Below, piece after piece: positions 1,203 to 17,054 of a stretch of 57,673 nucleotides of DNA; the first letter of the stretch is position 1; each line of letters opens with the position of its first letter. The position numbers were made by a program, and so were the translations under genes. Under the pieces are notes generated by a model. The model did not search any database and was not told where the DNA came from. It was given only the letters and a program-made list of their open reading frames with translations. The stretch comes from an uncultured Armatimonadia bacterium (GTDB lineage Bacteria; Armatimonadota; Zipacnadia; Zipacnadales; UBA5352), in assembly GCA_964484945.1 (NCBI GenBank), contig CAZAHB010000005.1, positions 1 through 57,673 on the forward strand, given 5' to 3'.

Positions 1203-4200
1203 CTACTCCCCCTCCAGCCACTGGACGACATTGCGGAGCAACTGCTCGCACGCCTCAACCGTCAGTTCCCCTGTCGGGTTCTCGCGCTTGATGACATACC
1301 GATCCGGGGATGGTTGCACCACCAGTACCGACCCGCCCGCCTGCGCCTGGACGATGGATGGATTTCCGTTACTGTCACTCGCCAGCACGGTCCAGTCGTC
1401 ATCGATCGAGGTGATGCTGTCGTATGAGATGCACCCTCCAAGCAGACCCGCCCCATCGGCAAAGAGCGGGTGATCGGGCTTGACGACTTCCCCGAGCATC
1501 GTGGTCTCGTTGGAGAGCGTCAGAGGCAGAGGCAGGAACGCAGGCTCGTGTGTCATGTCCTGAAGCTGAATGAAGGCCACCCGCCCCCCGGCGTCAATGA
1601 AGTCCAGAAGCAGCGGCCAGTTGCTATTGAGGCCCCCAAAATCCTTATAGTGTGCCTCAGATCCAACCAGCAGCGCGTCGTAGTTCGCGAGCACCTGCGG
1701 GGTCAGCTCGGCGACTGTGGGAAGTTCCACGCCCATCTGCACCAGCGCGCCCGCGACCGGGTCGCCCTCGCCGGTCAGCAGGGCGAGCCCCTCGCCGATG
1801 GCCAGGTCCCGCGCGTGGCGGGTTCTCGCTGAAAGCGTACCCTCGGTTTCGCCGGCTGTGTAGCGCAGCTTGATCTCTCCCTGACCGTTACCGGTGAGCT
1901 GAATCGTTGGGCTCAGCGTCACTCCGCCTCCGGCCGTCCACTCGACCTCGCTGCGGTCCGCGGTCAGCCCGTCGGGCAGTGAGGTGATTTCGAGGCCGGC
2001 GGGGATCTCCTGCCGGCTCGGATTGTTCACGCGAAGCGCCAGCAACCCCGGTCCGTCCGCGGGCAGGTAGACCGTATCTGACATCCCCACGGTCGGATCA
2101 GGCGCCGGTGGCGCCGGCATCTCGGTCATCCCCCACCGCTGCATGGCACTGAGCGCGAAGGGCGTCATGCGAAGCTGCATCGCGTAGCCCTTGCCTGAGC
2201 CCGATGGATTGTGGTTGAGGATCATATCGCCCATCGTCCTGACCAGCATCTCGCGGTATATCTCCGCGTCGGTCAACTCATAGGCGTAGGCGAGCCCTTC
2301 GTAGGTTTGCGTACTCGCGCCGCTGGCCCGGTCGTCAAACTGCGGGCACTGGGCGTACTGGAAGCCGTTTTCCTCGGGGACCCACATCCGCCAGCGCAGC
2401 CAGTCCACCGAGCGGGTCAGCGCGTTCTTCACGTCCGGGTCCGGGTCAACCTGGTCGAGCATCTTCAGGCCCGTCATGACCACGCCGGTCATAAACGCCT
2501 TGCCGCCCATGTGCTTGACCTCGTGCTCACACTCGCCGATGGGATGTATGAATGTGCCGGTTCCCGGGTCCTGCCGGGCGATTGCGTTCTGGGTGAAGAG
2601 CCGGGCCGCATTGAGGTACCACGGGTGCGGAATGACGTGATAGCCGCCCAGAGAGGCGATTGTGGACCAGCCCTGGGCGCGATGGACCCACTTGTGCGTG
2701 GCACGCGCCTCCTCACGCGCGAACCAGTCGCACAGCAGCCTGCCGGCCTCCAGGTAGCGGCGGTCGCCGGTCAAACACCAGGTCGTCATAACGCCCTGGG
2801 ACCACATGTGTCCGGTGTTCCAGATGCCCGCGTGGAACCAGTACTTCGCGTCTTCGGGGCGCTCGAGGTCCCAGCCGCCCACGTGGCCGATGCAATGCGC
2901 CTTCTGCAGGCCCAGCACAGACTCATTGGGGGCGACGCTGACTGTATCCACCGACGCGGTGTGGCGCGCCGCCTCCTCCGCGCGGTCGAAGAAGCGCCAG
3001 TCACCGGAGCGGACGAACTGCAGCAATAGGCCCCACTGCAGGTCATACTCCTGGTTGGTCCAGTTGACCCAGCGCTCCCCGTGCGTGTCGCCGAAGTTCA
3101 TCCAGTCATACTCGCGCACACGCTGCCGGCGCTGCTCCAGGCGCTCGAACCCCTCATCAATCCACTCCTGGTAGTGCTCGAAGGCGCCCTCCCGCTCGGG
3201 TTCGAGATCGCCGAAGCCGCCTGACGCGCAGTAGTGCTCGGGCCAGGCCGCCAGGAGCGGCATCTGTTGCCATGCATCGGCGAGATGCTCGTTGATCGCC
3301 TGGTCCTCGCCGAGCGCGTAGAAGAGCATGTCGTAGCTGAGCGACACGCCCATCGGGACCATGTACTGCCCGTCCCGACACCAGTAGTAGTACCGCGTCC
3401 GTTCAAAGGGCGTGAGGCCTTCATCCGCGTACTGGTCGGCGGGCAGGTCGGGGAATATCTCCGCAGTGACCGTGCGGCCCTCGGCGGAGAAAGCCTTCGG
3501 ATACGTCTGCCAGAAATCGCGCAGAGCGACCGTCATCCCGCGACTGTCCGAATGCAGGCTTCCTGTCGGGGTAATGTGCCCGGAGTGCTCCTCGGACTGC
3601 CCGTCTTCGGTAACGATGTAGTGGTTCTCGTAGTCGTGCAGCACGCGCCTGGACGGCGAACTCGCGTCACCGGGAAACTGCACCGGAATGTCGAGCGACT
3701 GTATGTTCGTCATCGTCGGCGGCCGCACCGCTTCCCCCCGGTCGCCGATCAGCGTGAAGACCGTCGGCACACCCGCGAAGCCTCGAATGAAGTACATCCG
3801 GCAGCGCCAGCCCAGTGAGGTTCCTGCATCGCCCGCGAAGTGGCCCTCGGCCAGCACGACCGTGCGGACCGGGCCTTCCTCCTCCACGACCAGGCGCTCG
3901 ACCGGCGCGCCGGCGGTGGAGTAGCGGTTGCCCTTTGCATCCATCAGCACTGCACCATCGGTGGCGGAGATGCACTGCTCATCCGCAGCGAAGGTACCGT
4001 CACCGTCGATGTCGCGCCAGATGTCTCCCGGCGGCGAGAAGCTCTCGCGGGAGATGTCCGCGCGCAGCACGTCGGTGGTCACGCGCAGACCGGAGGATGT
4101 CTCCTCAACCCGAATCGGCTCGGGGACCTCCGGACGCGCCACGCCCTCGCCGTACTCCAGCACGTACTCTCCGCCCTCGTGCATGAGGCTCACGAGAAGC

Positions 4201-6410
4201 CACTTGACCGATCCGTCCGGCCACCATCCAAGCTCCGTGAAGTCCGCCGCGACCGGCTCCCCGCCCTGCAGCACGCGGCAGTGTTCGGCGTCGCGCAGGT
4301 GTCCCTCGGGGATCGGCACACCGCCCCTGACTGGCCACGTCGGGCGATCCTCGAGCGGATCGGTGACCGCAAGCTGAATCCGCGCGCGATCCACGCTGCA
4401 GCGCTCGGGGCGCGGGAATTCGGCCACGAACGTTCGCGTCTGTCCGGTCACCTGGCCCTCACCGGCACCCGCGATCACGCGGTAGCTGTAGGTGGCACCG
4501 CGCTCGAGATCCTCGAGGCGAACACGGTGGTTATATGTGGCGCGCTCCTCGCCGGCCGTCTGGTTAAGCGCATCTCCTCTGCCCCACTCGACTCGCGTCA
4601 GACACGGCATGTTCGTCAGCGCGCAGATATCGACATCGACCGCATCGCCCGACTGGGCCGGCGGGCAAAACGCCGTCACGTTCTTCAGTGACAGGCTCTG
4701 CGGCTCCAGCATTTGCTCGGTGAGCGTCAACTCCGTAATGCGAGCGTCCTGGGCGGGTCCATCAGCGATGAACTCGATCGGCGTACCCTCGTCAAGTGAC
4801 ACCTGCTCGGGCGTCGAGAACACGTGGATCAGGCCATCGTTGTCGGCGGCGACCATCGTCGCCACGGTCTCGCCATCGACGCGAAGCTGAACCTCCTCGC
4901 GGCGCTCTGCAGAGTCCTGCAGCACCACGTTAAGGTGATAGTCGCCCGCAACGGGTGACGTGACCGTCGCGGTTGCGCCCTCCTCATCGGCTACGACCGC
5001 GTGGTCCTCCAGGTGCATGCCCTCAAGGTCGGCTTCCGCGAGGTCGACGTGCAGCGCGTCCATCTCGCGAAGCTGCTCGCGCCAGTACAGCCAGGGGCTC
5101 TCCACCCAGACCCCATCGGAGAGGACCTCCGACAGAGATCCCACGCGCGGCTTGGTGCGCTGGCTTTCACCCGGGCCGCAGACGGTGAACCACTCCGTGT
5201 TGTCATTCCCGCCCCCTTTGACCTTCTGCTGGCTCAACACGTGGGCGCGGTACTCGGTGTTCCCCTCTTCATTGTGATAAAGCTGCAGGTCCATGGAGAA
5301 GTAGATCGAATTGCCGTCAATGACGCCCCGCACATCTCGATCCTTCGCAAGCACATCGGCATTTCTGATGCTCCTGCCGAACGCTCCGGCGTTGCAGGTG
5401 AGCATCATGTCGGTGCCGCGCACGTGGCCATTGTCCTGGCGGCCGGTGGAGCGGTCGTTGTCGCAGTCGAGGTAGAGGATGATCAGCGTGCCGCCCGAAT
5501 CATCGTACTCCTCCGCGAAGTCAATCCTCCATATCCAGCGATTGCCGGCCGCGTTACCGAAGTAGATCTTTCCGATGTCATTGGCGTGCTCGAACGTATC
5601 GTCTTCGTCCCCGCCCGGCTTCGTGCCGTCCTCGCCGATCAGGTGCATGCTGTCGGCGTGCTCCGATGACATGCCCAGGACTTCCTCGACCGCATCCGAG
5701 ATACCGTCACCGTCGGCGTCCGGCTCATCCGTGCTCAACTCGGCAACGGGCGCACGCTCCGGCGGAGGCCCGATGCGCGGCTTCTCCGCATCACGCCGCT
5801 CGGGCAGGACAACCGGATGAAACTCCATCGGGTCGGAATCACTGTTTTGCGGAGGTGAGACGTGAGAGAGCACCCTGAAGCGCGGTTGGCCCGGCCCTTC
5901 GCCGAGCGGGAGGTCGGCGCAGACGTACATGGTATCGCCCACCGCCATCATGCGCAGTGGGCCCTGCGCGAGGCTCTTTGTGTGCTCGGTGAGGTTGAAC
6001 TCGCCATTCGCCTGGACGTACATCAGGTCGGTGCCGCGGGCCCATTCGGCATCCTGCCGGCCCGTCGTGAGGTCGCCGTCCACATCGAGGTAGAGGATGA
6101 ATGTGTTGTTCTCGCCGACGTAATCGTCCGCGAATGTGATCTTCCACAGCCAGCGGTCCTGTGCCACATTCGCGAGGTACACATCGACGAAGTCCGGCGC
6201 TTCCTGATGGTTGTTCGATACACTCTCATCATCGTCGCCGATGACGCCGTCGTGCCATTGCAGGGCGAATTCCTCGGCATGATCCGGGGCGGCACCAAGC
6301 TCCTGCTCGACAGTGTCGGCGATGGTGTCACCGTCGGCATCAGCCTGCTGGGCCAGACAGGGCGTAATGGCCATAGCGAGGATCACAAAGGCGATAGCGA
6401 TGCGCTGCAT
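1203..6410 (-). CDS. large secreted multidomain protein (1735 aa) with exo-rhamnogalacturonan lyase (PcRGLX/YetA-like) core
   Basis: Signal peptide, two ~200-aa N-terminal repeats, an FN3-like segment (TRVEWG..NHRVRLEDLERGATYSYRV), then GVPIPEG..WWPDGSVKWLLV and YDWMNFGD..NQEYD..RAEEAARHTASVD..GHMWSQG motifs typical of this family; GGAGG RBS. Confidence 0.7.
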   Translation of the reverse strand: MQRIAIAFVILAMAITPCLAQQADADGDTIADTVEQELGAAPDHAEEFALQWHDGVIGDDDESVSNNHQEAPDFVDVYLANVAQDRWLWKITFADDYVGENNTFILYLDVDGDLTTGRQDAEWARGTDLMYVQANGEFNLTEHTKSLAQGPLRMMAVGDTMYVCADLPLGEGPGQPRFRVLSHVSPPQNSDSDPMEFHPVVLPERRDAEKPRIGPPPERAPVAELSTDEPDADGDGISDAVEEVLGMSSEHADSMHLIGEDGTKPGGDEDDTFEHANDIGKIYFGNAAGNRWIWRIDFAEEYDDSGGTLIILYLDCDNDRSTGRQDNGHVRGTDMMLTCNAGAFGRSIRNADVLAKDRDVRGVIDGNSIYFSMDLQLYHNEEGNTEYRAHVLSQQKVKGGGNDNTEWFTVCGPGESQRTKPRVGSLSEVLSDGVWVESPWLYWREQLREMDALHVDLAEADLEGMHLEDHAVVADEEGATATVTSPVAGDYHLNVVLQDSAERREEVQLRVDGETVATMVAADNDGLIHVFSTPEQVSLDEGTPIEFIADGPAQDARITELTLTEQMLEPQSLSLKNVTAFCPPAQSGDAVDVDICALTNMPCLTRVEWGRGDALNQTAGEERATYNHRVRLEDLERGATYSYRVIAGAGEGQVTGQTRTFVAEFPRPERCSVDRARIQLAVTDPLEDRPTWPVRGGVPIPEGHLRDAEHCRVLQGGEPVAADFTELGWWPDGSVKWLLVSLMHEGGEYVLEYGEGVARPEVPEPIRVEETSSGLRVTTDVLRADISRESFSPPGDIWRDIDGDGTFAADEQCISATDGAVLMDAKGNRYSTAGAPVERLVVEEEGPVRTVVLAEGHFAGDAGTSLGWRCRMYFIRGFAGVPTVFTLIGDRGEAVRPPTMTNIQSLDIPVQFPGDASSPSRRVLHDYENHYIVTEDGQSEEHSGHITPTGSLHSDSRGMTVALRDFWQTYPKAFSAEGRTVTAEIFPDLPADQYADEGLTPFERTRYYYWCRDGQYMVPMGVSLSYDMLFYALGEDQAINEHLADAWQQMPLLAAWPEHYCASGGFGDLEPEREGAFEHYQEWIDEGFERLEQRRQRVREYDWMNFGDTHGERWVNWTNQEYDLQWGLLLQFVRSGDWRFFDRAEEAARHTASVDTVSVAPNESVLGLQKAHCIGHVGGWDLERPEDAKYWFHAGIWNTGHMWSQGVMTTWCLTGDRRYLEAGRLLCDWFAREEARATHKWVHRAQGWSTIASLGGYHVIPHPWYLNAARLFTQNAIARQDPGTGTFIHPIGECEHEVKHMGGKAFMTGVVMTGLKMLDQVDPDPDVKNALTRSVDWLRWRMWVPEENGFQYAQCPQFDDRASGASTQTYEGLAYAYELTDAEIYREMLVRTMGDMILNHNPSGSGKGYAMQLRMTPFALSAMQRWGMTEMPAPPAPDPTVGMSDTVYLPADGPGLLALRVNNPSRQEIPAGLEITSLPDGLTADRSEVEWTAGGGVTLSPTIQLTGNGQGEIKLRYTAGETEGTLSARTRHARDLAIGEGLALLTGEGDPVAGALVQMGVELPTVAELTPQVLANYDALLVGSEAHYKDFGGLNSNWPLLLDFIDAGGRVAFIQLQDMTHEPAFLPLPLTLSNETTMLGEVVKPDHPLFADGAGLLGGCISYDSITSIDDDWTVLASDSNGNPSIVQAQAGGSVLVVQPSPDRYVIKRENPTGELTVEACEQLLRNVVQWLEGE
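5180..6341 (-). repeat. internal tandem domain duplication (2 copies, offset 207 aa) in the 1735-aa protein
   Basis: Aligned pairs: DADGDTIADTVEQELG/DADGDGISDAVEEVLG; RWLWKITFADDY/RWIWRIDFAEEY; ILYLDVDGDLTTGRQD/ILYLDCDNDRSTGRQD; RGTDLM/RGTDMM. Confidence 0.85.
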
Positions 6411-6586: not shown

Positions 6587-7270
6587 TTACGGCCACGCAG
6601 GGTCCATGCGGAAGTCCTTCTTTGCGTAGGTCGTGGGCGGGTAGTTCGCGTGAGGTGCGCGTTGTCCACTGACCCACTTGCTGTGACCGTCACAGAAGGC
6701 GTAGTTCGATCCGCCATTATGCTGCGCATAGCGCCAGCGGAAGTTCTTGGAGCCGGAGTCGGCTTCATTGAACCACCTACCGTAGGGCAGCGTGCCCTCC
6801 TGCTCGACGAGGAGGATGACATTCGCCGGTTCGGTGATCCGGGCCAGCTTCACCGGTTGAATGTAGCAGAAGTTGTAGTTCCAGCCGTAGTCAACATCGT
6901 AGTCGATGGGCACGGAGCCGCCGCCCGCGGGCGCTCCACGGATGTAGTCGTATCTGCCGCTGGGGCACCGCAGGATCTGCTCGTTCTTCAGGTAGGGCTC
7001 TATCCGCACGAACCAGAAGGTGTCGCCCGCGGGGTCCAACAGCCGGAGGGGGTCAGAGGTATCGCTCGTGTGATCCTGCATGGGCAGCTTCTCATCGTAA
7101 TCCTGAGCATACATGAGCACACCCAGGGCGATCTGCTTCATGTTGCTGAGGCACGAGGACTGCCGCGCTTTCTCGCGCGCTCTCGCGAATACAGGAAAGA
7201 GAATTGCTGCAAGGATCGCAATGATGGCGATCACGACCAGCAATTCGATCAGGGTGAAACCGCGCTTCAT
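6587..7270 (-). CDS. DUF1559 / prepilin-type N-terminal cleavage-methylation protein with H-X9-DG motif
   Basis: [46 protein letters not shown].. and C-terminal [16 protein letters not shown]; GGAGAGG RBS before ATG 7270. Confidence 0.93.
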
Positions 7271-7311
7271 GATGATCACCTCTCCAAAGTGATGTCGCTA
7301 TTGTCTATTGT

Positions 7312-8055
7312 TTAGAGCAATGGCTCTCCGTCACCTTCCCGGGTGGCACACTTTTTCGCCACAATCATCAGCCACGGCACATGAAGAAAAGGCGACCACG
7401 TGTCTTCGGAGGTGCCGGCGAGTTCGCGGGCTCCGGCGACGCGTTCTCGCTGGCGGGCGGTCAGGGGCAGGTCAGCCAGCAGGTCCAGCGCCTCCGGCTC
7501 GGCTTCGCGCGGGATGTGCGCAAACTCCACCCAGGGCTCCAGTCCCGCCTCTTCGGCCAGTTCAGGAAGTTTCCGGCCCATGAGCGGATCGGCGCCGGCG
7601 CGCTCCAGGGCATCGAGCCAGACCACGCGGAGGCCGAGATCCGGGTGTTCGAGCATGCCCCCATAATCCGGCTCCAGCGCGACCAGCACGCCGCCTGCGC
7701 AGAGAGCCCGCGCCGCCTCGTGGATGGCCCCATGCGGCTGATCGATCCACATGAGCGCGTTCTGGAAGAAGACAAGGTCGAAGCTCCCCCCGGCGAAGGG
7801 CAGATCACGGGCATCGGCGGCGGCAGACACGTGAGACGCAGGGGCGATGTCGATGCTCACGACCTCGCCCCGCGCGCGGCGGCGAAGCTCATCTGTCACA
7901 AAGCCGTGGCCGCACCCGACCTCCAGCACGCGCTCACGGCGACCGATCCCGGCCCTCCGCAGGGCACGCGAACGCGGTCCCTGCAGCCAGTCAGCCAGAA
8001 GCCCTGACAGCTTGCGCGACGGGCGCTCGGGGCTGGCGTGCTCCTCCCCGATCAG
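7312..8055 (-). CDS. class I SAM-dependent methyltransferase (start uncertain, probably CTG at 8055)
   Basis: Motif I VLEVGCGHG, ADARDLPFAGGSFDLVF, GGVLVALEPD; no ATG/GTG/TTG between the upstream stop and motif I. Confidence 0.82.
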   Translation of the reverse strand: MIGEEHASPERPSRKLSGLLADWLQGPRSRALRRAGIGRRERVLEVGCGHGFVTDELRRRARGEVVSIDIAPASHVSAAADARDLPFAGGSFDLVFFQNALMWIDQPHGAIHEAARALCAGGVLVALEPDYGGMLEHPDLGLRVVWLDALERAGADPLMGRKLPELAEEAGLEPWVEFAHIPREAEPEALDLLADLPLTARQRERVAGARELAGTSEDTWSPFLHVPWLMIVAKKCATREGDGEPLL

Positions 8056-9863
8056 CGGCCACCTCCCGCGCAAGCGCACGCACACGCGCAGCCCGCGCAG
8101 GCGCATGCACAGCCGCCGCCTCCGCTGTAGCCGCCGCCACTGCCGCTGGATTCGGCCATCGACTCGAGGAAGTCCATGCCGACCTTGTCCACGCCTGAAA
8201 GGTCCATGACACCGCCATCCGTGATGCCAACCGAGACGGGATCCATCGTTGAGGCCATGTTGCCGGCCACGTTTTCAGACCATCCGGCGAATGATGCGGC
8301 GACATCGCCGGCGGTCGTCCGCCCTCCCACGGCCGGGCCGCTGTCGGACCGTCCGCCGAGGGCCGGGCCTGCCCACCGTGGCGAGTAGTGATAGCCGCCG
8401 GTGTGCCAGGTGTGGAAGTGGCGCCGGCGGTCGGTATCCAGCATCAGCCACCCGATGTTCTGATCGACGAAGTCGTCTCGCTTCTCGACATCGCCGATTG
8501 TGCGGGCTTCCTTCCACGCCTTGTATACGATCGATTCGTAGTACTCCTTCGTACGCTCCAGATCGAACCCCTCCATGCGCTCAACCACGCCGTCAACGAG
8601 CGCCTTTACCTCCTTGCTGAGGTCAAGGTCGGGGATCGGGGTGCCGGGTTTCTCCATAATCGCGTCAAGGAATGGCTGCTCGTATCCGCGAATGACACTG
8701 CCACTCTTCGCGGCGATCTTCCGTCGCTCACCGCGAGTCGTCCGGTACGGTTCCGCCACCTCGACGGTGAGCGGATCGTCGCGCGTCATCGCCACGAGCC
8801 CCTTCTGCAGCATTCCGAAGATGAGCAGTGTGAGCACATCGCCCAGCGCCCGCACAAGCAACACTGCAGCCTCCGGGGCGGTGAGCCCGCGCTTGATCTG
8901 ACCGCCGGGTACCGACTCGATGGGCGGGAGATAGGAGCGCTTGCTGGACTCCAGCAGGCGCTCGCCGAAGATGAACAGCAGGATCAGCACCGGGATGCCG
9001 ACCAACTCGATGGCCGGCCCCACACCATCGGGGAGCGTCCACGTTACAGGGATCGCGATCACGAGCGGGATGAAGAGGCAGGTGCCCGTGCCGGCGGTGA
9101 GGCGAAAGTACCAGATGCTGAATGCGACGAGCATCAGAATGCCGACAATGGTGCGCGCGCCGCTGCTCTCGGTCCACCACTTCCATGCCAGGTCCCAGAC
9201 GGTCTGCTTGATGACCCGATCCATCCAGTCCTTCGGGAAGGAGACGTCAACCATGTGCTCGCCGGTCATGGTGGTGGCGGGAAAGCGCCACATGACGGCC
9301 TTCTTGCTTTCCAGCTCTGCCTTCTGGGTGAACTTCTTCAGACGGTACTTCACCCGCTGAAGATCGACGGAATCGGGCAAATAGACCGCGATCAGCAGGT
9401 CAGTGGTGTCCGTGACAAAGGCCGACCCCCAGTAGGTGGGTGTGATCTGCAGAATCGCCAGCTTCGAATCGGTCGTGTCCTGATAGACCATGTCGGGCAT
9501 GGTGGCCTGGAAACGGAACGTACCGGTCTCACCGGGCTGGACAGCCGGACTAATCGGGACCTCAACGCCCGTGTCGATGTAGGTGGACGGCTTGATACCC
9601 GACAGCGGCGTCCCGTCAACCGACGCGCTCATGTTCGAAATGTCGTAGTCGTCATGCGGCAGGCCCATGTCCACTACATCGATCGGATGGGCGCCCTGGT
9701 TGCAGTGGAACTGGATCGTGTAATCAAGCGTCACGGAGGCGTCCGGGTTCGGCGTTAACTCCAGGACCATCCGCGGCACCGAGAACGAGTAGTCCTGAGC
9801 TGCCGCGGGCATCGCCAGCACGATCAGCACAGCGACCAAAAGTGTCCATCGCGCGATCCTCAC
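8052..9863 (-). CDS. DUF2207/TIGR04222-like integral membrane protein with Gly/Ser linker and Cys-Ala repeat C-terminal tail
   Basis: Signal peptide, ~210-aa extracytoplasmic beta-rich domain, 3-4 hydrophobic helices, GLTAPEAAVLL segment, cytoplasmic domain, end SSGSGGGYSGGGGCACACAGCACACACAGGGR*; GTG start overlaps the upstream stop (GTGA). Confidence 0.8.
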   Translation of the reverse strand: MRIARWTLLVAVLIVLAMPAAAQDYSFSVPRMVLELTPNPDASVTLDYTIQFHCNQGAHPIDVVDMGLPHDDYDISNMSASVDGTPLSGIKPSTYIDTGVEVPISPAVQPGETGTFRFQATMPDMVYQDTTDSKLAILQITPTYWGSAFVTDTTDLLIAVYLPDSVDLQRVKYRLKKFTQKAELESKKAVMWRFPATTMTGEHMVDVSFPKDWMDRVIKQTVWDLAWKWWTESSGARTIVGILMLVAFSIWYFRLTAGTGTCLFIPLVIAIPVTWTLPDGVGPAIELVGIPVLILLFIFGERLLESSKRSYLPPIESVPGGQIKRGLTAPEAAVLLVRALGDVLTLLIFGMLQKGLVAMTRDDPLTVEVAEPYRTTRGERRKIAAKSGSVIRGYEQPFLDAIMEKPGTPIPDLDLSKEVKALVDGVVERMEGFDLERTKEYYESIVYKAWKEARTIGDVEKRDDFVDQNIGWLMLDTDRRRHFHTWHTGGYHYSPRWAGPALGGRSDSGPAVGGRTTAGDVAASFAGWSENVAGNMASTMDPVSVGITDGGVMDLSGVDKVGMDFLESMAESSGSGGGYSGGGGCACACAGCACACACAGGGR

Positions 9864-11122
9864 TGCACCTCACCACCTTCGCGGTCATCGCTCCAGCCAT
9901 CCGGGTCCCTGGGGCAGTCTGCATTGCAGATCGGCAGGTCCGGGCAGTCCGCACACCTCGTGGGCGCCTTCAGTCGCTCGCGGTAACGCTCAAAGACATC
10001 GTGCGCCCAGATCTCGCGCCATGGCGATTCGAGGATATTCCCGGCGCTCTCAGGGCCACGCGCGGGCCAGACGGTGCCGTCGGCACTGACACGGACGGTC
10101 ACGTCCGCCGATGTCCGCGGGCCCTCGCGCACCTGCTGAGCAAGGCCCTTCGCGGAATTAAAGCGTTTCGGGGGCGCCCAGAGGTAGCGAGAGTTCGTGC
10201 GCTCGGACAGTTCGAAGAAAGTCGTCGCCACCTGCGGCAGTGCCCTGGCCGGCAGCGCGCCCGAGGCATCGCCGGCCTCATCCTCGTCCGGGCAGGCGAT
10301 GGCGAATCCGACGACGTTGGTAACACCCATCTCCAGCAGGCCCTCCGCAATGTCATCCATCTCGGCGAGGTTGCTGTCCATCAGCGGCCACTGCGCGACC
10401 GGCGCAAGCTCCAGTTCCCGGCACTGCTCCACGGCCGATTTGAACGCCTCGCAATCGCCCACACCCGCGGTCTCGTCATGCCCGTCGGGATTACTGCAGA
10501 CGTACAACATGTCGAGGTGGTCGAGGCCGGCCATCGCGCACTTCTCGATCACGTCAGCGGGAAGCCATCCCGCCAGCGCCCGCAGCCCACAGATCATGCC
10601 GATGTCCTCAGCGGCCTCCACCAGCAGCGCGAGGTGCGCCCGTTCGCCATCAGAGGCGGCCTGTATGGAAACGTGCGGCACGCCCGCATCCCACAGTGCG
10701 CGGATGATCTCACGGAAGCGCTCGGGCCTGCACTGATCGACGTCCGCGCGCAGCGGCGCTGCCAGCTGGCGCTCCCAGTGCGAGAGTTCAGGGTCGGTGA
10801 GATTCGTCACCGGGTAGTTGTCACCGGGCTTCGCGAGGTCCTCGATCATGTTGTGGACGTGGCCCAGGTCGGCGCGGACCTGATTTTCGGGAGCCCCGCT
10901 GAACTCCGAGGTGATCTCTTCGATGATCTCCTGATCGGGGCGCTCCTCCAGCACGCCGGCGGCCATCGTCACTCCGACCGGGGACAGCCACGCTGCCTCG
11001 GCGGCGTTTGCCAGCAGCAGGCCGCTGCCGTCAGGGTCCACTCGCAGATGAAAGCGCGTCGGCCACTCGCCCACCAGCATCTCATACGGCCGGATCGTCA
11101 CGTCGCTTGCGCTCTCTGACAC
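9860..11122 (-). CDS. degenerate radical SAM/SPASM paralog with PqqD/RRE-like N-terminus; lacks CxxxCxxC
   Basis: Collinear with the upstream enzyme (HLRVDPDGSGLLL, APLRAD, LWDAGVP, LAGLDHL, GNIL..W..IW) but missing the cluster-binding segment; keeps only CADCPDLPICNADC. Confidence 0.8.
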   Translation of the reverse strand: MSESASDVTIRPYEMLVGEWPTRFHLRVDPDGSGLLLANAAEAAWLSPVGVTMAAGVLEERPDQEIIEEITSEFSGAPENQVRADLGHVHNMIEDLAKPGDNYPVTNLTDPELSHWERQLAAPLRADVDQCRPERFREIIRALWDAGVPHVSIQAASDGERAHLALLVEAAEDIGMICGLRALAGWLPADVIEKCAMAGLDHLDMLYVCSNPDGHDETAGVGDCEAFKSAVEQCRELELAPVAQWPLMDSNLAEMDDIAEGLLEMGVTNVVGFAIACPDEDEAGDASGALPARALPQVATTFFELSERTNSRYLWAPPKRFNSAKGLAQQVREGPRTSADVTVRVSADGTVWPARGPESAGNILESPWREIWAHDVFERYRERLKAPTRCADCPDLPICNADCPRDPDGWSDDREGGEVQ

Positions 11123-12540
11123 CGGCTCATCACCTCATTTCTGGCCACCCGCTCCAGCGGACAGCCTCCGCCACATACCCGAAGATCCTCGCATTCGAGA
11201 CATTCGGCAGGCAGGTCAGCGTTCTCCGGCCGCTCCCGGCGGAAGCGAATCCGGGTGAAAAGCTCAGACTCCCAGATGCGATCCCAGCGGTCACGGAGGA
11301 TATTGCCGACCGGCTCGTAGTAGGACTGGCAGGGCAGGACATCCCCGTTGGGCTCCACGCAGATGGAATACTCCGCGGCGTTGCAGAATGTGAGGCCGAC
11401 GTCCACCTTCATGGGCGAAAGCTCACAGTGCCGCGTCACGGTGTACCAGATGAAGCGCATATCGCGCTCGGCGGCCCGGTCGCGCACGCTCTCGAGGACC
11501 TCGCGCAGCCTGCCGATGCTCAGCGCGGAAAGGTTTGCGGCCCCGCATCCGGCGTGGATCATCCCGTTCATCGCAAAAGTGCGCAGGCCCAGGTCGTGCA
11601 GGAAGTCAACGATCGGCTCGGCCTCGTCGGCGTTCTCCTCGATCAGCGTGGTGTTCGTGATCGTATGCAGGCCGCGCTCGACACAGTTGCGGATGCCCGC
11701 CACCGTCTCCTCGAAGGCCTCCGCGCGCACAATGCGGTTGTGAAGCTCAGCACGGTGTGAGGCGAGTGTAATCTGCACGTGATCGAGGCCCGCGTCCATG
11801 AGTCCATCGATCAGTTCGCGCTCGCGCAGGCGCCGCCCGTTGGTGTTGAGACCGCAGATCATCCCCAGGTCCTCGGCATGACGGACGATCTCCGGCAGGT
11901 CATCGCGGAGCGTCGCCTCTCCGCCGGTGAGGATCACGTAGGGGACGCCGATCGCCCACAGCCGGTCGAGGACCTCGCGCCAGCCGTCCGTGTCGAGCGC
12001 CGGCATCTCCCGCCGCTCGGGCTCATTGTAGCAGTGCGCGCAGTCGTTGTTGCAGGCGTACGTGAGCGCGAGATCGGCCTTGAGCGGGGCCTGCGCGCGG
12101 ATCGAGAGGGGCTCGGGCTGCGGGATGCCTGCTTCGCACACGCGGCATCCCTCTGAGGGGCGGCTGATCTTCGCTATCGCCGAGCGCACCCGTTCGTACT
12201 CCGCCTCCAGTCCAAAATCGCGCGCGCCCGCGAACCGGGTTCGCAGATAGACGAGGGCGCGATCGGCGGGCACATCATCCAACGCCAGCCCCGCGCATTC
12301 TGCCTGCAGCGGAGAGAGATGCAGCGTGTCGGTCCCGTTCACGATCAGCAGGCCCGTACCATCATCGTGAGTGCGCAAATGCATGCAAACGCGCCCTTCG
12401 GGGCGCTCGAAGCGCTGGTGACGCAGTGAGACGCCGTCACGCCCGTGTGACAGAGCGCCGACTCGCGCGCCCAGTCGGCCGAGGTCCTCCCGCAAGCCGG
12501 CCTTCAGACGCGCGAAGAGCCCACCGTCATCGGCTACCAC
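11098..12540 (-). CDS. radical SAM/SPASM enzyme with N-terminal PqqD/RRE-like domain
   Basis: CNNDCAHC (12031-12054), LTGGEAT, LNTNG, SPASM cysteines C..FCNAAEYSICVEPNGDVLPC..CLECEDLRVCGGGC; extra CRVC before the core. Confidence 0.92.
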   Translation of the reverse strand: MVADDGGLFARLKAGLREDLGRLGARVGALSHGRDGVSLRHQRFERPEGRVCMHLRTHDDGTGLLIVNGTDTLHLSPLQAECAGLALDDVPADRALVYLRTRFAGARDFGLEAEYERVRSAIAKISRPSEGCRVCEAGIPQPEPLSIRAQAPLKADLALTYACNNDCAHCYNEPERREMPALDTDGWREVLDRLWAIGVPYVILTGGEATLRDDLPEIVRHAEDLGMICGLNTNGRRLRERELIDGLMDAGLDHVQITLASHRAELHNRIVRAEAFEETVAGIRNCVERGLHTITNTTLIEENADEAEPIVDFLHDLGLRTFAMNGMIHAGCGAANLSALSIGRLREVLESVRDRAAERDMRFIWYTVTRHCELSPMKVDVGLTFCNAAEYSICVEPNGDVLPCQSYYEPVGNILRDRWDRIWESELFTRIRFRRERPENADLPAECLECEDLRVCGGGCPLERVARNEVMSRCQRAQAT

Positions 12541-12878
12541 TTCGGCTTCTCCTCAAGCTGATAGGAGGTGCCACAGTACGGGCACTTCACGTAGATGGCC
12601 CCTTCCTTCATCTCGATGGCATCGGAACTTAGTTGCGCACCGCACGATTCGCAGCGCAGCTTCTCAAGTTCGGTGTCGCCGGTGAAGTCAACCTTGTGGG
12701 TCACCTTCATCTCCGGGCCCCTGGAGCGGGCGAGGTAGATCATGAAACCGGCGCCGCCAAGCAGCACGATTCCGATGATGACGCGTGGAACAGTGTTGCC
12801 CTGCCCGGACCCGACAAGGAAGACCAGGCCGGCGAGGCCGAGCACGGCGCCGAGCAGATATCCGGCTGTCTTCATCAC
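12534..12878 (-). CDS. small membrane protein, two TM helices plus C-terminal zinc ribbon
   Basis: Two hydrophobic stretches then CESC..CPYC; stop overlaps the start of the radical SAM gene. Confidence 0.8.
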   Translation of the reverse strand: MMKTAGYLLGAVLGLAGLVFLVGSGQGNTVPRVIIGIVLLGGAGFMIYLARSRGPEMKVTHKVDFTGDTELEKLRCESCGAQLSSDAIEMKEGAIYVKCPYCGTSYQLEEKPKW

Positions 12879-13000
12879 GTAGCGGCACGCGGCTGCCGCG
12901 GCACCTCCTCAGAGCGTGAGCATGCGTGCGCATGGCAAGGGATAGTTCGCCCGCAGACAGCGCGAGACCTGCCTTTGGACCTGCAAAGCGCCCCGGCCGG

Positions 13001-15304
13001 CTACTCCACAACTAACTCGTGATGGCCGACGCCCCACCGGCCGATGCTGACGATAACGCGCCCGTCCTCGATGTGCCAGCGCGGGCGGGGACCGTAGCTG
13101 GATCGCTGCAACGGTGCGCCCTCCACGACGGCCGCGAATGCATCCTCAATACCGTGCACCACCACCGTGCAATCGCGCTGATCCTGCGCGCCGGGGAAGT
13201 CCCCCTGTGCCGCATCGCAATGCACGCCGACGCCGTCCGCGACCGGTTCGGTGGTGAAACGCTGCGTTCGGAATGCCCCGTCCTCGAAGTCATACGTGCG
13301 CCCGTCATCCTCATAGAGCGTCATTTCACCCGCTGCGCCGGCCCACACGTGGATGCTAAGCTCATCGAGCGGTCGCTGGCCGACATAGTCGGTCACCGGC
13401 CCCATGGGGATGATAGCACCTGCGGGGGCGAGCAGCGGCCCACCGCGCATGTCCGGCACCTCGGGAGTGCGCCAGCCGCCGCCATCGACGGGGTCACCGG
13501 TCCACACGTTGTACCACAGGCCCTCGGGGAGCCAGACTTCATCGGTGAAGCAGCCGACGAGCAGCGAATCGCCGAGCATGAACTGGTGCAGGCACTCATC
13601 GGCCTCCTGCTCGTGCGGCCAGAGCAGAGGCATCGGGCGCATGATGGGCATGCCGGTGCGGTGCGCCTTCCACGCCATGGAGTAGAGGTAGGGGATCAGG
13701 CGGTAGCGGAACTGGACGTACTGCCGGAAGACCTCCTCCATCTCCTCGCCCTGCAGCCACGGGTGGCGGAAGTAATTCCACGAGTTCAGTTGCGCCCACG
13801 GCAGCAGGCAGCCGAAATGAATGCCGTCCGCGCGGTAGGACATCATATCCACAGTGTTGAGGCCGTGCCCGGACATCGAGAGATTCAGGCACGCGACGAG
13901 CGGCTCCTCTCCCCCGCCGGTGTCGCCCGTCCAGGTGCCGGTCCAGCGCTGCACACCGGCCCACCCGTCCGGAGTGAAGGGGAAGGTGCGCTCGGGAACT
14001 GCTGAATCCCGCTCGTCCGTCTCACGGAAGCCCAGGTACATCTGCTTCGAGTACAGCAGCGGGTAGAGATTGTGCATCTGATCGTCGGTCATCCCGTTCC
14101 CCCAGAGCCGGTCGGGGTGCTCGAGGCACTGATAGGCGCCATCCTGCTTGAACCAGTGCGCGCCCTCGAAAACAAACTCCTTGAGGTGCTCGAACCACGG
14201 TTCCTCGGGCCGGGTGATGCGGTCGAGGCGGCGCTGACCCGCGCTCAGGTGCTCGTCCTGCTCATGGCCTTCGGCGAAAAACTCCTGATCCTCATCACGC
14301 GCCGCATCCGCCTCGCGGACCTCATCGTCAACGTGCCGCTCTTCTTCGTAGGAAAGATCGTAGTCATTGCACAGCCACAGCCCCGGTTTGAAGCCCATGC
14401 GCTGTGCGGCGGCGAAGAATGTGTCGCCGGTGCGGGCGTAGCCAGGCACGGGGAAGCGGTCCGGATGCCAGCACTTGTCCACCGTGGCATCGTAGTTCGT
14501 CTCCATCCAGCCCGGCTCCAGTCCAATGGCATCACAGGGGATCTCCCGGTCGCGGAAGTTCCGGCAGTCGCCGAGAAACTCGTACGCGTCAGCCTGTGTG
14601 CGGCAGATGAACCACAGCCCAAAGCCCCACTTCGGCGGCAGGAACGGCCGACCGGTCACGCGCGTGTAGCGTTCGATGATCTCCGCCGGCGACGGCCCGT
14701 AGATTACGTAAAGGTCCAGCACCTCGTTCTCGCACTCGAAGCCGAACCAGTCATCGGATGTAGCGCCGAGATCGTACCACACGCGGCGCGTGGTGTTCAT
14801 CAGCAGCCCGTAGCCGCGCGAGGAGAGCACGAAGGGGATCGGGATGTACTCCTCGACGTTGCGGATCCACAGGTCGCCCTTCGTCCCGCGGTGCTCGATG
14901 CGGTCGCGCGTCTGATCGCCGAGACCGAAGAAGCGCTCGCCTGCGGGAAGCTCGAACCGCGCGCGGAAGCCCGGGTCTGGCCCGAGTATCGGCGGCTCGG
15001 CGCTGACAAACAGCCCCTCTCCCTCGGCACCGGAGACTGCCAGCGAGCCGTCCGCCGCCACGTCCACGGTCATGAACTCACTGGCCGCGAGCGAGGCCCC
15101 CTGTCCGGTCTCCGCGCGAACCGCCACCTCGTCCCACTCGCGCCGCCACAGATCGTACCGCAGCAGCGGCGACATCGGAGGCTCATCACCCTGCCATCCC
15201 CGGATGCGCGCGATTCCCGGCGTGAGGAAGGACACGTCTACGGTCGCGTCATCTGCGGTTAGCGAAAGACCTCGGTCGGTCGTCTCTGCGTTCGAAAGCT
15301 CCAC
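13001..15304 (-). CDS. glycoside hydrolase family 31 (alpha-glucosidase/alpha-xylosidase-like)
   Basis: ERFFGLGDQ, IPFVLSSRGYG, TGRPFLPPKWGFG, FKQDG (nucleophile), WTGD (acid/base), RYRLIPYLYS, QFMLGDSLLV, LYEDDG; GGAG RBS. Confidence 0.92.
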   Translation of the reverse strand: MELSNAETTDRGLSLTADDATVDVSFLTPGIARIRGWQGDEPPMSPLLRYDLWRREWDEVAVRAETGQGASLAASEFMTVDVAADGSLAVSGAEGEGLFVSAEPPILGPDPGFRARFELPAGERFFGLGDQTRDRIEHRGTKGDLWIRNVEEYIPIPFVLSSRGYGLLMNTTRRVWYDLGATSDDWFGFECENEVLDLYVIYGPSPAEIIERYTRVTGRPFLPPKWGFGLWFICRTQADAYEFLGDCRNFRDREIPCDAIGLEPGWMETNYDATVDKCWHPDRFPVPGYARTGDTFFAAAQRMGFKPGLWLCNDYDLSYEEERHVDDEVREADAARDEDQEFFAEGHEQDEHLSAGQRRLDRITRPEEPWFEHLKEFVFEGAHWFKQDGAYQCLEHPDRLWGNGMTDDQMHNLYPLLYSKQMYLGFRETDERDSAVPERTFPFTPDGWAGVQRWTGTWTGDTGGGEEPLVACLNLSMSGHGLNTVDMMSYRADGIHFGCLLPWAQLNSWNYFRHPWLQGEEMEEVFRQYVQFRYRLIPYLYSMAWKAHRTGMPIMRPMPLLWPHEQEADECLHQFMLGDSLLVGCFTDEVWLPEGLWYNVWTGDPVDGGGWRTPEVPDMRGGPLLAPAGAIIPMGPVTDYVGQRPLDELSIHVWAGAAGEMTLYEDDGRTYDFEDGAFRTQRFTTEPVADGVGVHCDAAQGDFPGAQDQRDCTVVVHGIEDAFAAVVEGAPLQRSSYGPRPRWHIEDGRVIVSIGRWGVGHHELVVE

Positions 15305-15482: not shown

Positions 15483-15770
15483 GCGTTTCTGGTAACTCCA
15501 CGACTACCCACCGCTGCAATGCTCTGCCCATTGACCACTCGCTACTTCCTCTGCGAGGGGTTGAGACAACCGGTTGTTGCTTCTGTCGCCCCCGCGCGTC
15601 CTCACGGGCAGGCTCACCCTGGTGCCTCCCGGTCTTTCGTGCTGACAAAGTGCGCCTTGCATCACATCTCAAAGAAGCCATCTTTGGGCATAACGCTGAC
15701 GCCTCCAGACGACCTGTATTTGCTTGCTGATTATCACTGCGCTGCGACGATGATCTGCCGTTACGTGATA

Positions 15771-17054
15771 AGTGCCAGACCGCATCGCGTCGAACGGGCC
15801 GATCTTTCGGTCGCCGAAAGTGATGACTTCCACGAACTCTTCGACGGCCTGAATACGATGCTGGATGCGCTGATTAACCCGCTGAATGTCGCCGCCCAAT
15901 ACATCGACCGCATATCCGAAGGGGATATTCCGGATCCGATCACGGACGATTACGATGGCGACTTCAACGAGATCAAGAACAGCATCAACATGTGCATCGG
16001 CGCCGTCAATCGCCTGATCCAGGACGCCAACATGATGGCCGACGCGGTCGCGGACAAGAAGCTGGACGTGCGGGCCGACCCGTCCCGCCATCGGGGTGAC
16101 TTCGAGCGAATTGTCCAGGGCATAAATGAGACCGTAGAGGCAATGGACCAGGCGCTGGGGCCGGTCGCAGGAGCAATCCTGCAGATCGCGGCTGCGACCG
16201 ACCAGATCTCTCAGGGCGCGCAGACGCTGGCCGAGGGCTCTGCCGAGCAGGCCAGTTCGCTGCAGGAAGTCTCCGCAAGCCTCGAGCAGATGTCGGCGAT
16301 GACCCAGCAGAATGCGGCCAACGCACAGGAAGCCGACAGCCTCTCGGACGTGGCCGCCAACACCGCGAAGAAGGGCAACGAGGCTATGGAGCGGATGTCG
16401 CAGGCCATCAACGACATCCAGCAGTCGTCGGAGGAGACCTCGAAGATCGTCAAAACCATCGATGAGATCGCCTTCCAGACGAACCTGCTGGCCCTCAACG
16501 CCGCAGTCGAGGCGGCCCGCGCCGGTGATGCCGGGAAGGGCTTTGCCGTGGTTGCAGAGGAGGTGCGCAATCTTGCGCAACGCTCGGCCGAGGCGGCCAA
16601 GAATACCGCCAACATGATCGAGGAGGCCGTCAAGAACGCCGAGAGCGGCGTCGCCATCAGCGAGGAGGTTGACGAGGCGCTCACAGAGATCGGCGAGGGC
16701 TCTCGCAGGGTGTCAGAACTCATCGCGGAGATCGCTGCTGCCAGCAATGAGCAGGCAGGCGGCATCGAGCAGGTCAACACCGCCCCCGAGCAGATGGATG
16801 AGGTCACCCAGCAGAACGCGGCCAATGCCGAAGAGTCGGCCTCGGCGGCCGAGGAGATCAGCGCGCAGACCGACGAACTGCGCAACATGGTCGAGGCCTT
16901 CACGCTGTCGGCGGACGTATCGGCCGAAACGCCCTCCGGGACTGATCTGACACTGGTCTCCGATGACGAAAAGACGTCCCAGTCGCGAGAGCCGTCCGGA
17001 GATGAGGCGATCCCGCTTGACGACGAGGATCGCCAGGCGCTCGCGAACTTCTAG
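15771..17054 (+). pseudogene. 5'-truncated methyl-accepting chemotaxis protein (HAMP repeats plus signalling domain)
   Basis: [40 protein letters not shown] signature; poly-HAMP ([28 protein letters not shown]); homology starts mid-HAMP with no RBS, TM or sensor domain; Pro in the signalling helix (VNTAPEQMD). Start coordinate approximate. Confidence 0.65.

Follow-up and report, generated by a model that had tools for sequence, protein, structure and literature searches.

We analysed a five-gene cassette on a contig of 57,673 nt from an uncultured Armatimonadia bacterium (contig CAZAHB010000005.1 of GenBank assembly GCA_964484945.1; this whole stretch is referred to below as the window). A preliminary description of this DNA had proposed that five overlapping minus-strand genes specify a radical S-adenosylmethionine (rSAM) system acting on the Cys-rich tail of a membrane protein. 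In the list of open reading frames (ORFs) of the window, all five were found at the coordinates proposed for them, and neighbouring genes overlap and are translationally coupled. The genes and the tail are as follows.

12534..12878, minus strand: gene 1, Zn-ribbon membrane protein, 114 aa
11098..12540, minus strand: gene 2, active radical SAM/SPASM enzyme, 480 aa
9860..11122, minus strand: gene 3, catalytically dead rSAM paralog, 420 aa
8052..9863, minus strand: gene 4, tail membrane protein, 603 aa
8055..8111, minus strand: tail CACACAGCACACACAGGGR of the gene 4 product, the proposed core or substrate, residues 585–603 (19 residues)
7312..8055 (or from 8106), minus strand: gene 5, class I SAM-dependent methyltransferase, 247 or 264 aa

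The overlapping stop and start codons described earlier could be read from the sequence at the junctions, except that a start of gene 5 within CTGA (8052–8055) is only plausible. The stop codon TAG of gene 1 (12536–12534) and the GTG start of gene 2 at 12540 share the 7 nt GTGGTAG. Gene 2 stops with TGA at 11100–11098, and gene 3 starts with GTG at 11122, giving a 25 nt overlap, or a 4 nt GTGA overlap with the alternative paralog start at 11101. Genes 3 and 4 are joined by GTGA at 9863–9860. Gene 4 terminates with CGC TGA (8054–8052), and the methyltransferase frame reads CTG at 8055, with a Shine–Dalgarno-like GGAGGT 5 nt before it, formed within the codons of the terminal GGGR of the tail. 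Further in-frame starts are TTG at 8073, GTG at 8079 and 8085, and ATG at 8106. Such starts are numerous because the third base of an Ala codon and the TG of the following Cys codon read NTG, and the true start of the methyltransferase is therefore uncertain. The TGY-GCN repeats of the tail make the +2 frame rich in NTG codons, so gene callers extend the methyltransferase N-terminus spuriously (ATG 8106 in the window; a 59 nt overlap in locus L003). The GGGR codons supply a GGAGG ribosome-binding site for the gene downstream of the tail gene (8055–8111 in the window, and equivalents elsewhere).

No separate short precursor peptide gene was found, in agreement with the preliminary description: the overlapping cassette genes leave no intergenic room, and no other Cys-rich ORF was found in the window. 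In a regular-expression search of the whole window, the tail of the 603 aa protein was the sole CxCxC-type motif within a long ORF, and the single other match runs across stop codons.

The (Cys-Ala)n tail, whose presence at residues 585–603 had been correctly noted, is preceded by a flexible Gly linker and has seven Cys residues, strictly spaced as C-x-C. Of the 120 best homologs, which reach down to 41% identity, 118 end in the motif G(n)-CACA(CA)GCACACACAGGGR, so that the tail is near-invariant. The alignment columns from C587 to G602 were invariant, with a mean column identity of 42% for the protein, and the tail was its most conserved segment across several phyla. The Ala positions were as invariant as the Cys positions. 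The 84 tails from the fetched loci were encoded by 81 distinct DNA sequences, among which all synonymous Cys, Ala, Gly and Arg codons and all three stop codons occurred, indicating that selection acts on every amino acid, Ala included, at the protein level. Conservation of this region at the DNA or RNA level, where it overlaps the methyltransferase start, was rejected on the same counts.

At least 499 clusters of tail-protein homologs were found at 90% identity, and the family had 708 representatives at 50% identity. A Planctomycetaceae metagenome-assembled genome (MAG) and another lineage have all five genes in the order seen in the window, between unrelated flanking genes. A profile scan of one genome per GTDB species detected relatives of the dead paralog in at least 393 genomes; the best 80 of the 393 belonged to Armatimonadota (Zipacnadia, WS1), Chloroflexota, Sumerlaeota and Planctomycetota. 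For this gene order (subfamily 1), linkage was counted over the loci with enough flanking DNA from these 80 genomes. A tail-family gene with the tail motif followed the dead paralog in 61 of 62 loci, the methyltransferase lay downstream in 48 of 52, and the active rSAM and Zn-ribbon genes lay upstream of the dead paralog in 50 of 56.

A second and larger group (subfamily 2; at least 1296 clusters) consists of relatives of the tail protein with 30–37% identity and a length of approximately 520–590 aa, which bear the permuted tail CACACACAGCACACAGGGR. Compared with CACACAGCACACACAGGGR, this tail has equal length and the same seven Cys residues, with the internal Gly moved by one CA unit. Loci of subfamily 2 were collected with a family-agnostic DNA pattern for the permuted tail, which was found on at least 120 metagenome contigs. 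All 120 of the listed matches were located at ORF C-termini and ran into Arg-stop, and those with enough upstream DNA matched the tail family; two short ORFs (L158 and L175) gave no family match. In 71 of 77 loci an rSAM gene lay on the same strand no more than 4 kb downstream (median gap, 60 nt), and its product was 38–43% identical to the window enzyme (E 1e-113 to 1e-123). The Zn-ribbon gene lay upstream of the tail gene in 59 of 63 loci. Between the rSAM gene and the methyltransferase there is usually a gene of approximately 390 aa, which encodes an rSAM paralog with an RRE-like N-terminus (RRE, recognition element of RiPPs, peptides made on the ribosome and modified after translation) and which lacked both CX3CX2C and the SPASM cysteines in all 18 examined (L115, L116, L123, L126, L134 and 13 more). 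This second dead paralog is approximately 30% identical to the window rSAM and is closer to the active enzyme than to the window dead paralog, suggesting that rSAM activity may have been lost twice or that the two dead forms may have diverged early.

Taken together, the loci of both subfamilies indicate that two gene orders share a conserved system of five components, an active/dead rSAM pair among them, and by these comparisons it is present in Armatimonadota, Chloroflexota, Planctomycetota, Sumerlaeota, Cloacimonadota and candidate phyla. By the same comparisons, the type of tail tracks the clade of the enzyme. The co-occurrence anticipated in the preliminary description was borne out in both directions, the tail following the dead paralog and an rSAM gene following the tail gene, and its proposal that the tail is the substrate of the rSAM pair is strongly supported by the comparative evidence of conservation, linkage and the tracking of tail and enzyme clade.

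To characterize the active rSAM enzyme, we assigned the following features from its translation and alignments.

12166..12408, minus strand: RRE-like (PqqD-type winged helix) region, approximately residues 45–125
12031..12054, minus strand: CX3CX2C cluster motif, C163, C167 and C170 (YACNNDCAHCY), from translation and alignment
11164..11385, minus strand: SPASM domain with the full Cys set, C386...C394...G-x4-C405; C446xxC449x5C455x3C459

The enzyme matched the Pfam families PF04055 (4.1e-28) and SPASM PF13186 (1.3e-10; residues 386–450), in line with its earlier description as an intact rSAM/SPASM enzyme. No NCBIfam family was matched above its cut-off. The best matches (NirJ2, AhbD, PqqE, StsB, SkfB and the mycofactocin maturase) scored approximately 100–115 bits, and the best matches of the window and subfamily 2 enzymes to named maturases scored approximately 100–138 bits against cut-offs of 265–850, all scores of the rSAM being 3–5 fold under the cut-offs. 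The nearest PDB sequences were SkfB (6efn; 3.7e-19) and then PqqE (6c8v). With respect to the N-terminus, Pfam PqqD matched 18 of 41 orthologous rSAM N-termini (best, 2.8e-7), every other family matching no more than two, and the best PDB match of the N-terminal profile was TfuB1 (6jx3_B; E 0.012), a lasso-peptide RRE protein, in the expected region. The informative detection thus came from the N-terminal profile and the family scan, single window sequences being uninformative, and the PqqD-like RRE noted in the preliminary description is supported at the level of the family. On this evidence, apart from a separate precursor peptide, the enzyme shows the features that define RRE-dependent rSAM/SPASM maturases, and it belongs to none of the curated families.

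The tight linkage also bears on the alternative that these are neighbouring genes without a shared function; the rSAM could then be an enzyme of, for instance, the anaerobic sulfatase-maturing or haem type, and the tail a low-complexity ending that is neutral. A sulfatase gene is present in the window (17148–18533), sulfatases lie near the cassette in its closest relatives (L001, 319–1677; L003, 3166–4653; L005, L007 and L009), and NirJ2 and AhbD are the top NCBIfam matches by score. However, sulfatases were found in only 4 of 80 subfamily 1 loci and in 0 of 120 subfamily 2 loci, the NCBIfam scores are far below the cut-offs, the linkage holds in 61 of 62 and 71 of 77 loci, and the tail is under strict selection at the protein level. 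This alternative is highly improbable and is effectively refuted by the comparative data, and the nearness of sulfatases in the window and in these relatives looks like a case of local synteny rather than a functional link. A link to anaerobic sulfatase-maturing enzyme (anSME) was rejected on the same locus counts, together with the lack of a C/S-x-P/A-x-R motif in the tail.

The flanks of the cassette in the window are not conserved with it, and the neighbours of the cassette vary from phylum to phylum. They comprise a 1735 aa secreted protein with a PcRGLX-like domain (1203–6410), a prepilin-type N-methylation/DUF1559 protein (6587–7279), a GH31 glycosidase (13001–15304) and a methyl-accepting chemotaxis protein (15519–17054). 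The nearest homologs of the cassette proteins are from Armatimonadota MAGs. A scan of 6900–13400 for promoters and terminators gave no signal above that of shuffled sequence.

The paralog encoded by gene 3 aligned with the active enzyme over its full length with 26% identity (E 1e-33), and in this alignment the CX3CX2C stretch is deleted. Its only Pfam match was SPASM (4e-6). CX3CX2C was present in 0 of 119 members of the dead-paralog family, indicating that the inactivation recognized in the preliminary description is ancestral and maintained. In the remnant of the SPASM domain, the first cysteines are lost and CxxCx5Cx3C is left, with C390, C393, C399 and C403 nearly invariant. The N-terminus was examined in an AlphaFold2 (AF2) model with a mean predicted local distance difference test score (pLDDT) of 86.9, in which the secondary structure was read by DSSP.

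10832..11098, minus strand: RRE-like fold of the dead paralog, residues 9–97, four beta strands followed by three helices

This region aligns with the N-terminus of the active enzyme, and the dead paralog alone gave a weak PqqD match (E 0.086); the full-length dead-paralog profile was uninformative for an RRE when compared with PDB. In Foldseek searches, the best matches of the model were SkfB and SuiB, over 403–489 columns covering the whole RRE–barrel–SPASM architecture. Weak NCBIfam matches to TIGR04347 (2e-7) and TIGR04304 (2e-3) were under the TIGR04304/TIGR04347 cut-offs (30.5 bits against 525, 17 bits against 300).

The assignment of gene 5 as a SAM methyltransferase was confirmed by a match to Methyltransf_11 (4e-17), a class I family. 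No NCBIfam family was matched above its cut-off, only weak similarity to DVU_1556, BioC and UbiE was seen, and a PDB search gave only uncharacterised or small-molecule methyltransferases. Subfamily 2 orthologs were 32–42% identical. The Zn-ribbon protein likewise agrees with its earlier description, two N-terminal hydrophobic helices and two CxxC pairs being visible in the sequence: its C-terminal part carries CxxC...CxxC and ends in PKW, and Pfam zinc-ribbon matches were sub-threshold only. Orthologs in subfamily 2 were 42–47% identical (E 1e-26 to 1e-28). The C-terminus ...CPYCG..Y...E.PKW is kept in both subfamilies (window, 12534–12560; L089, 9579–10007; L090, 9576–10007). None of the five cassette components reached an NCBIfam cut-off.

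These two sets of properties, of the tail and of the enzymes, also suit a different arrangement, in which the tail is a metal- or Fe-S-binding ligand or carrier arm of the metallothionein kind, the membrane protein is a scaffold, and the rSAM pair and methyltransferase work on or beside the arm to build or modify a cluster, metalloid or small molecule. Seven Cys residues in strict C-x-C spacing behind a flexible Gly linker would serve such an arm, and a tail that does not vary between phyla resembles a cofactor site more than the core of a natural product. In addition, the methyltransferases weakly match arsenite/ArsM-type and BioC/UbiE small-molecule enzymes and not known peptide methyltransferases, and non-peptide rSAM enzymes of the NirJ/AhbD type score as high as peptide maturases. 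We nevertheless regard this arrangement as unlikely. Both rSAM paralogs carry an RRE-type domain, which points to peptide binding, Ala would not need to be as invariant as Cys for simple thiolate ligation, and the cassette has no conserved metal transporter or chaperone.

We then considered the body of the tail protein, for which the AF2 model (pLDDT 83) and the family alignment gave the following features.

N-terminus, minus strand: signal-peptide-like hydrophobic helix ending in AAAQ (AF2 model)
Residues 27–210, minus strand: beta-sandwich, predicted to be exported (AF2 model)
Residues 234–308, minus strand: transmembrane (TM) helices (AF2 model)
Residues 329–485, minus strand: alpha/beta domain, predicted to be cytoplasmic (AF2 model)
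8253..8318, minus strand: conserved amphipathic helix GDVAASFAGW.EN, residues 516–537 (helix 518–537 in the AF2 model)
8148..8207, minus strand: motif DLSGVDKV...LES(M)AES, 13–32 residues ahead of the tail
C-terminal end, minus strand: disordered Gly-rich linker and (Cys-Ala)n tail (AF2 model)

The window protein gave no Pfam or NCBIfam match. In Foldseek searches, its N-domain resembled the beta-sandwiches of M1-aminopeptidase N-domains and OST1, a generic match that gave no functional lead. In the family alignment, T516, D520, V521, S524, F525, G527, W528 and E530 of the amphipathic helix are near-invariant. Within the DLSGVDKV motif D559 is invariant and L555, G557 and V561 are conserved at 90% or more; DLSGVDKV...LES(M)AES is a candidate recognition sequence in cis, comparable to a leader. 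Hydropathy suggests approximately three TM segments in the window protein and, in the short paralogs and subfamily 2 proteins, one hydrophobic stretch of 25–40 residues. In all forms the last TM segment is followed by a K/R-rich segment ending in ...YLPP (mean K+R, 5.7; D+E, 1.3). Because the N-domain is predicted to be exported and the TM segments are odd in number, the tail and the C-terminal domain are predicted to lie in the cytoplasm, the compartment where Fe-S/SAM enzymes work.

Several proteins of the tail family are longer than that of the window, namely P0488 (927 aa), P0250 (948 aa), P0094 (711 aa) and P0312, P0314 and P0322 (approximately 770 aa). P0488 has N-terminal PF06439 (DUF1080) and PF13385 (laminin-G-like) domains, and the exported part of such proteins may therefore bind glycans or other extracellular ligands.

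The Chloroflexota loci differ in composition. Two tail proteins are encoded in tandem (L054, L055, L058, L059, L060, L068, L072, L073, L076, L078, L082 and L084), with bodies that are 47–55% identical and the same invariant 17-residue tail core, and in several loci one copy has one Cys-Ala unit fewer. The shorter paralog, with this tail core, has a single long hydrophobic stretch rather than three TM helices and lacks DLSGVDKV; the GDVAASFAGW.EN helix is also kept in the tandem short paralogs. Extra genes are present between the active rSAM gene and the dead paralog (L054, 8477–9818; L073, 6734–9783; L060, 3563–5829; L057, 6234–8294). One product, of approximately 230 aa, weakly matches Met_synt_B12 (MetH activation domain) and has a Cys motif at its C-terminus; another is a polytopic membrane protein resembling LiaF; and some loci also encode a Ser/Thr protein kinase anchored by a C-terminal TM segment.

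The architecture of the tail protein bears on whether a modified tail would stay in place. The body of 580 residues could be viewed as a giant leader, from which the modified tail is cleaved and released as a RiPP or, in the manner of pyrroloquinoline quinone (PQQ) and mycofactocin, as a diffusible cofactor. In the borosins, large proteins are known to carry the core peptide at their C-terminus, PqqE and MftC-type enzymes are among the nearest hidden Markov model (HMM) neighbours of the rSAM, and the invariant core resembles the cofactor precursors PqqA and MftA. On the other hand, neither gene order keeps a protease, an exporter or additional tailoring enzymes, an invariant GGGR closes the tail, the Gly run is not preceded by a conserved cleavage motif, and the body itself is well conserved, with an exported domain and TM helices that are hard to explain for a mere leader. 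Release of the tail is consequently quite improbable, even more so than a metal-binding arm.

In conjunction with these results, we favour modification in cis of the cytoplasmic tail of the membrane protein, in the style of a RiPP and probably by thioether cross-links and methylation; we give this interpretation a probability of roughly 0.6. The beta-sandwich would lie outside the cell, with the C-terminal domain, Gly-rich linker and (Cys-Ala)n-GGGR tail inside the cytoplasm. There the active RRE-rSAM-SPASM enzyme would partner its cluster-deficient paralog, which keeps the RRE and is probably a substrate-holding partner. The pair would bind a conserved segment upstream of the tail and apply 5'-deoxyadenosyl radical chemistry to the alternating Cys and Ala residues. 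The likeliest reaction would be the formation of thioether cross-links from Cys sulfur to Ala carbon, of the sactionine or ranthionine type, because the closest characterised relatives are sactisynthases and because Ala acceptors would explain the invariant Ala. The class I methyltransferase might then methylate the remaining thiols or the C-terminal carboxylate, and the zinc-ribbon protein with its two TM helices might tether or organise the complex at the membrane; both of these roles are suggested by the constancy of the two genes in the cassette. The product would stay attached to the membrane protein, serving there as a structural, metal-binding or redox element, and would not be a diffusible peptide. 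Such a fixed element is likelier than a released peptide of the antibiotic type, given that the tail does not vary between phyla and that a conserved protease or exporter is lacking.

Several observations weigh against this interpretation. The N-terminus of the window rSAM alone gives no PqqD match, so that its RRE status rests on the family level, and the topology comes from hydropathy, charge and the AF2 model. Enzymes of the NirJ/AhbD type, which do not act on peptides, score as well as maturases in NCBIfam, and the HMM and PDB neighbours do not separate thioether formation from C–C cross-linking, epimerisation or other rSAM reactions. CxCxC is typical of metal-thiolate sites, and the tail could accordingly be a ligand and not a substrate. 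The linkage is also incomplete. Six subfamily 1 loci (L039, L067, L071, L074, L077 and L083) have the dead paralog and tail protein and lack an adjacent active rSAM or Zn-ribbon gene. In locus L066 (a Thermoguttaceae MAG, 4286–6070), the Zn-ribbon gene, rSAM and dead paralog are followed by an unrelated low-complexity ORF of 594 aa and not by a tail protein. In subfamily 2, 6 of 77 loci lack a same-strand rSAM within 4 kb downstream, five having no rSAM in the fetched flank and L155 having one on the opposite strand, and the methyltransferase was found in only 25 of 40 loci. The specific chemistry, whether thioether formation, epimerisation or methylation, is a guess, and PqqE/MftC-like or other rSAM reactions on the tail are possible.

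Among known systems, the sactipeptide and ranthipeptide maturases (SkfB, AlbA, StsB and CteB) share with the present enzymes an N-terminal RRE, a barrel with CX3CX2C, SPASM or twitch clusters and a Cys-rich target. Of the PDB entries, SkfB, which forms Cys-to-C-alpha thioethers, matched best in sequence as well as in fold, and AlbA aligns with the subfamily 2 enzymes from the RRE onward. In those systems, however, the substrate is a leader–core peptide of 30–60 aa with a hypervariable core, whereas the presumed substrate here is the end of a 600 aa integral membrane protein and its core is invariant across phyla. The present cassette further differs in its obligatory dead paralog, methyltransferase and Zn-ribbon membrane protein, in the lack of a protease or exporter, and in scores far under all family cut-offs. 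The PqqE/PqqD–PqqA and MftC/MftB–MftA systems also combine a SPASM rSAM enzyme and a PqqD-type RRE with a highly conserved C-terminal motif, but they target Glu/Tyr or Val-Tyr and not Cys/Ala. Compared with them, no pqqB, pqqC, pqqD, pqqF or mft genes are present here, the candidate substrate is a large membrane protein, and a dead rSAM paralog stands in place of the stand-alone PqqD or MftB.

rSAM/SPASM enzymes that act on proteins are known: QhpD introduces Cys thioethers into QhpC, a small soluble subunit, and anSME forms formylglycine in sulfatases, which are soluble enzymes with a C/S-x-P/A-x-R motif. As proposed for the present system, the polypeptide modified by the SPASM rSAM enzyme stays a functional protein afterwards. 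Neither of the two is known to involve a dead paralog, a methyltransferase or a membrane protein as substrate, and the tail lacks the sulfatase motif. An active rSAM/SPASM enzyme together with a paralog lacking the SAM cluster is a feature shared with GeoRSP (TIGR04303/TIGR04304) and the TIGR04347 pseudo-SAM/SPASM proteins; the scores here are 10–20 fold under those cut-offs, and the partners in those systems are different and include no tailed membrane protein.

The closest idea found in the literature concerns TIGR04222 membrane proteins, whose Cys-rich tails have been proposed to be modified, in the manner of RiPPs, by oxidative enzymes that depend on multinuclear non-haem iron (MNIO enzymes) (PMC12452194). 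According to that study, the TIGR04222 tails are variable, Ser/Gly-rich and predicted to be periplasmic, and one-third of the genomes with TIGR04222 genes have no MNIO genes (PMC12452194). The common element is the idea of a Cys-containing low-complexity tail of a multi-domain membrane protein as the substrate of RiPP-type modification. The layout of the tail protein, with a predicted exported N-domain, TM helices and a Cys-bearing end, is similar overall to that of TIGR04222/DUF2207 proteins, but its end is an invariant motif and not a variable low-complexity region. In contrast, the present system has an rSAM pair and not an MNIO/DUF692 enzyme, an invariant (CA)n tail that is predicted to be cytoplasmic, and much tighter linkage. 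Among the loci that had gene calls and Pfam labels, none listed an MbnB_TglH_ChrH/DUF692 gene. The tail protein was rejected as a member of DUF2207/TIGR04222, and the label given to it in the preliminary description did not hold: the window protein had no match to either at E<=10 in Pfam or E<=1 in NCBIfam, and weak matches were seen in only 5 of 65 relatives for TIGR04222 (best, 1.4e-4) and in 1 of 65 for DUF2207_C (0.028), which is a remote resemblance at best.

No description of the cassette was found in the open-access literature, an absence that is not proof. The preliminary statement that no characterised example is known has to be qualified by the known protein targets of QhpD and anSME and by the proposal for MNIO enzymes and TIGR04222 tails. 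Tentatively, at somewhat less than even odds, the system would represent the first RiPP-type rSAM maturation of an integral membrane protein, in which an active/dead heterodimer gives a cross-linked, methylated and membrane-tethered tail; the resulting element could be a thioether ladder or a protein-derived metal or redox cofactor.

The known products of RRE-dependent rSAM enzymes are small peptide natural products and cofactors derived from peptides. The system described here suggests that, in several phyla that have received little study, such machinery modifies a conserved membrane protein at its C-terminus. The target of 19 residues is essentially identical everywhere and offers a clean experimental handle, and the obligatory dead paralog, present in two different forms, points to a regulatory logic worth understanding. 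If true, this would be a new post-translational modification of proteins and would provide a function for a large family of hypothetical proteins, as well as new seed families for genome annotation.

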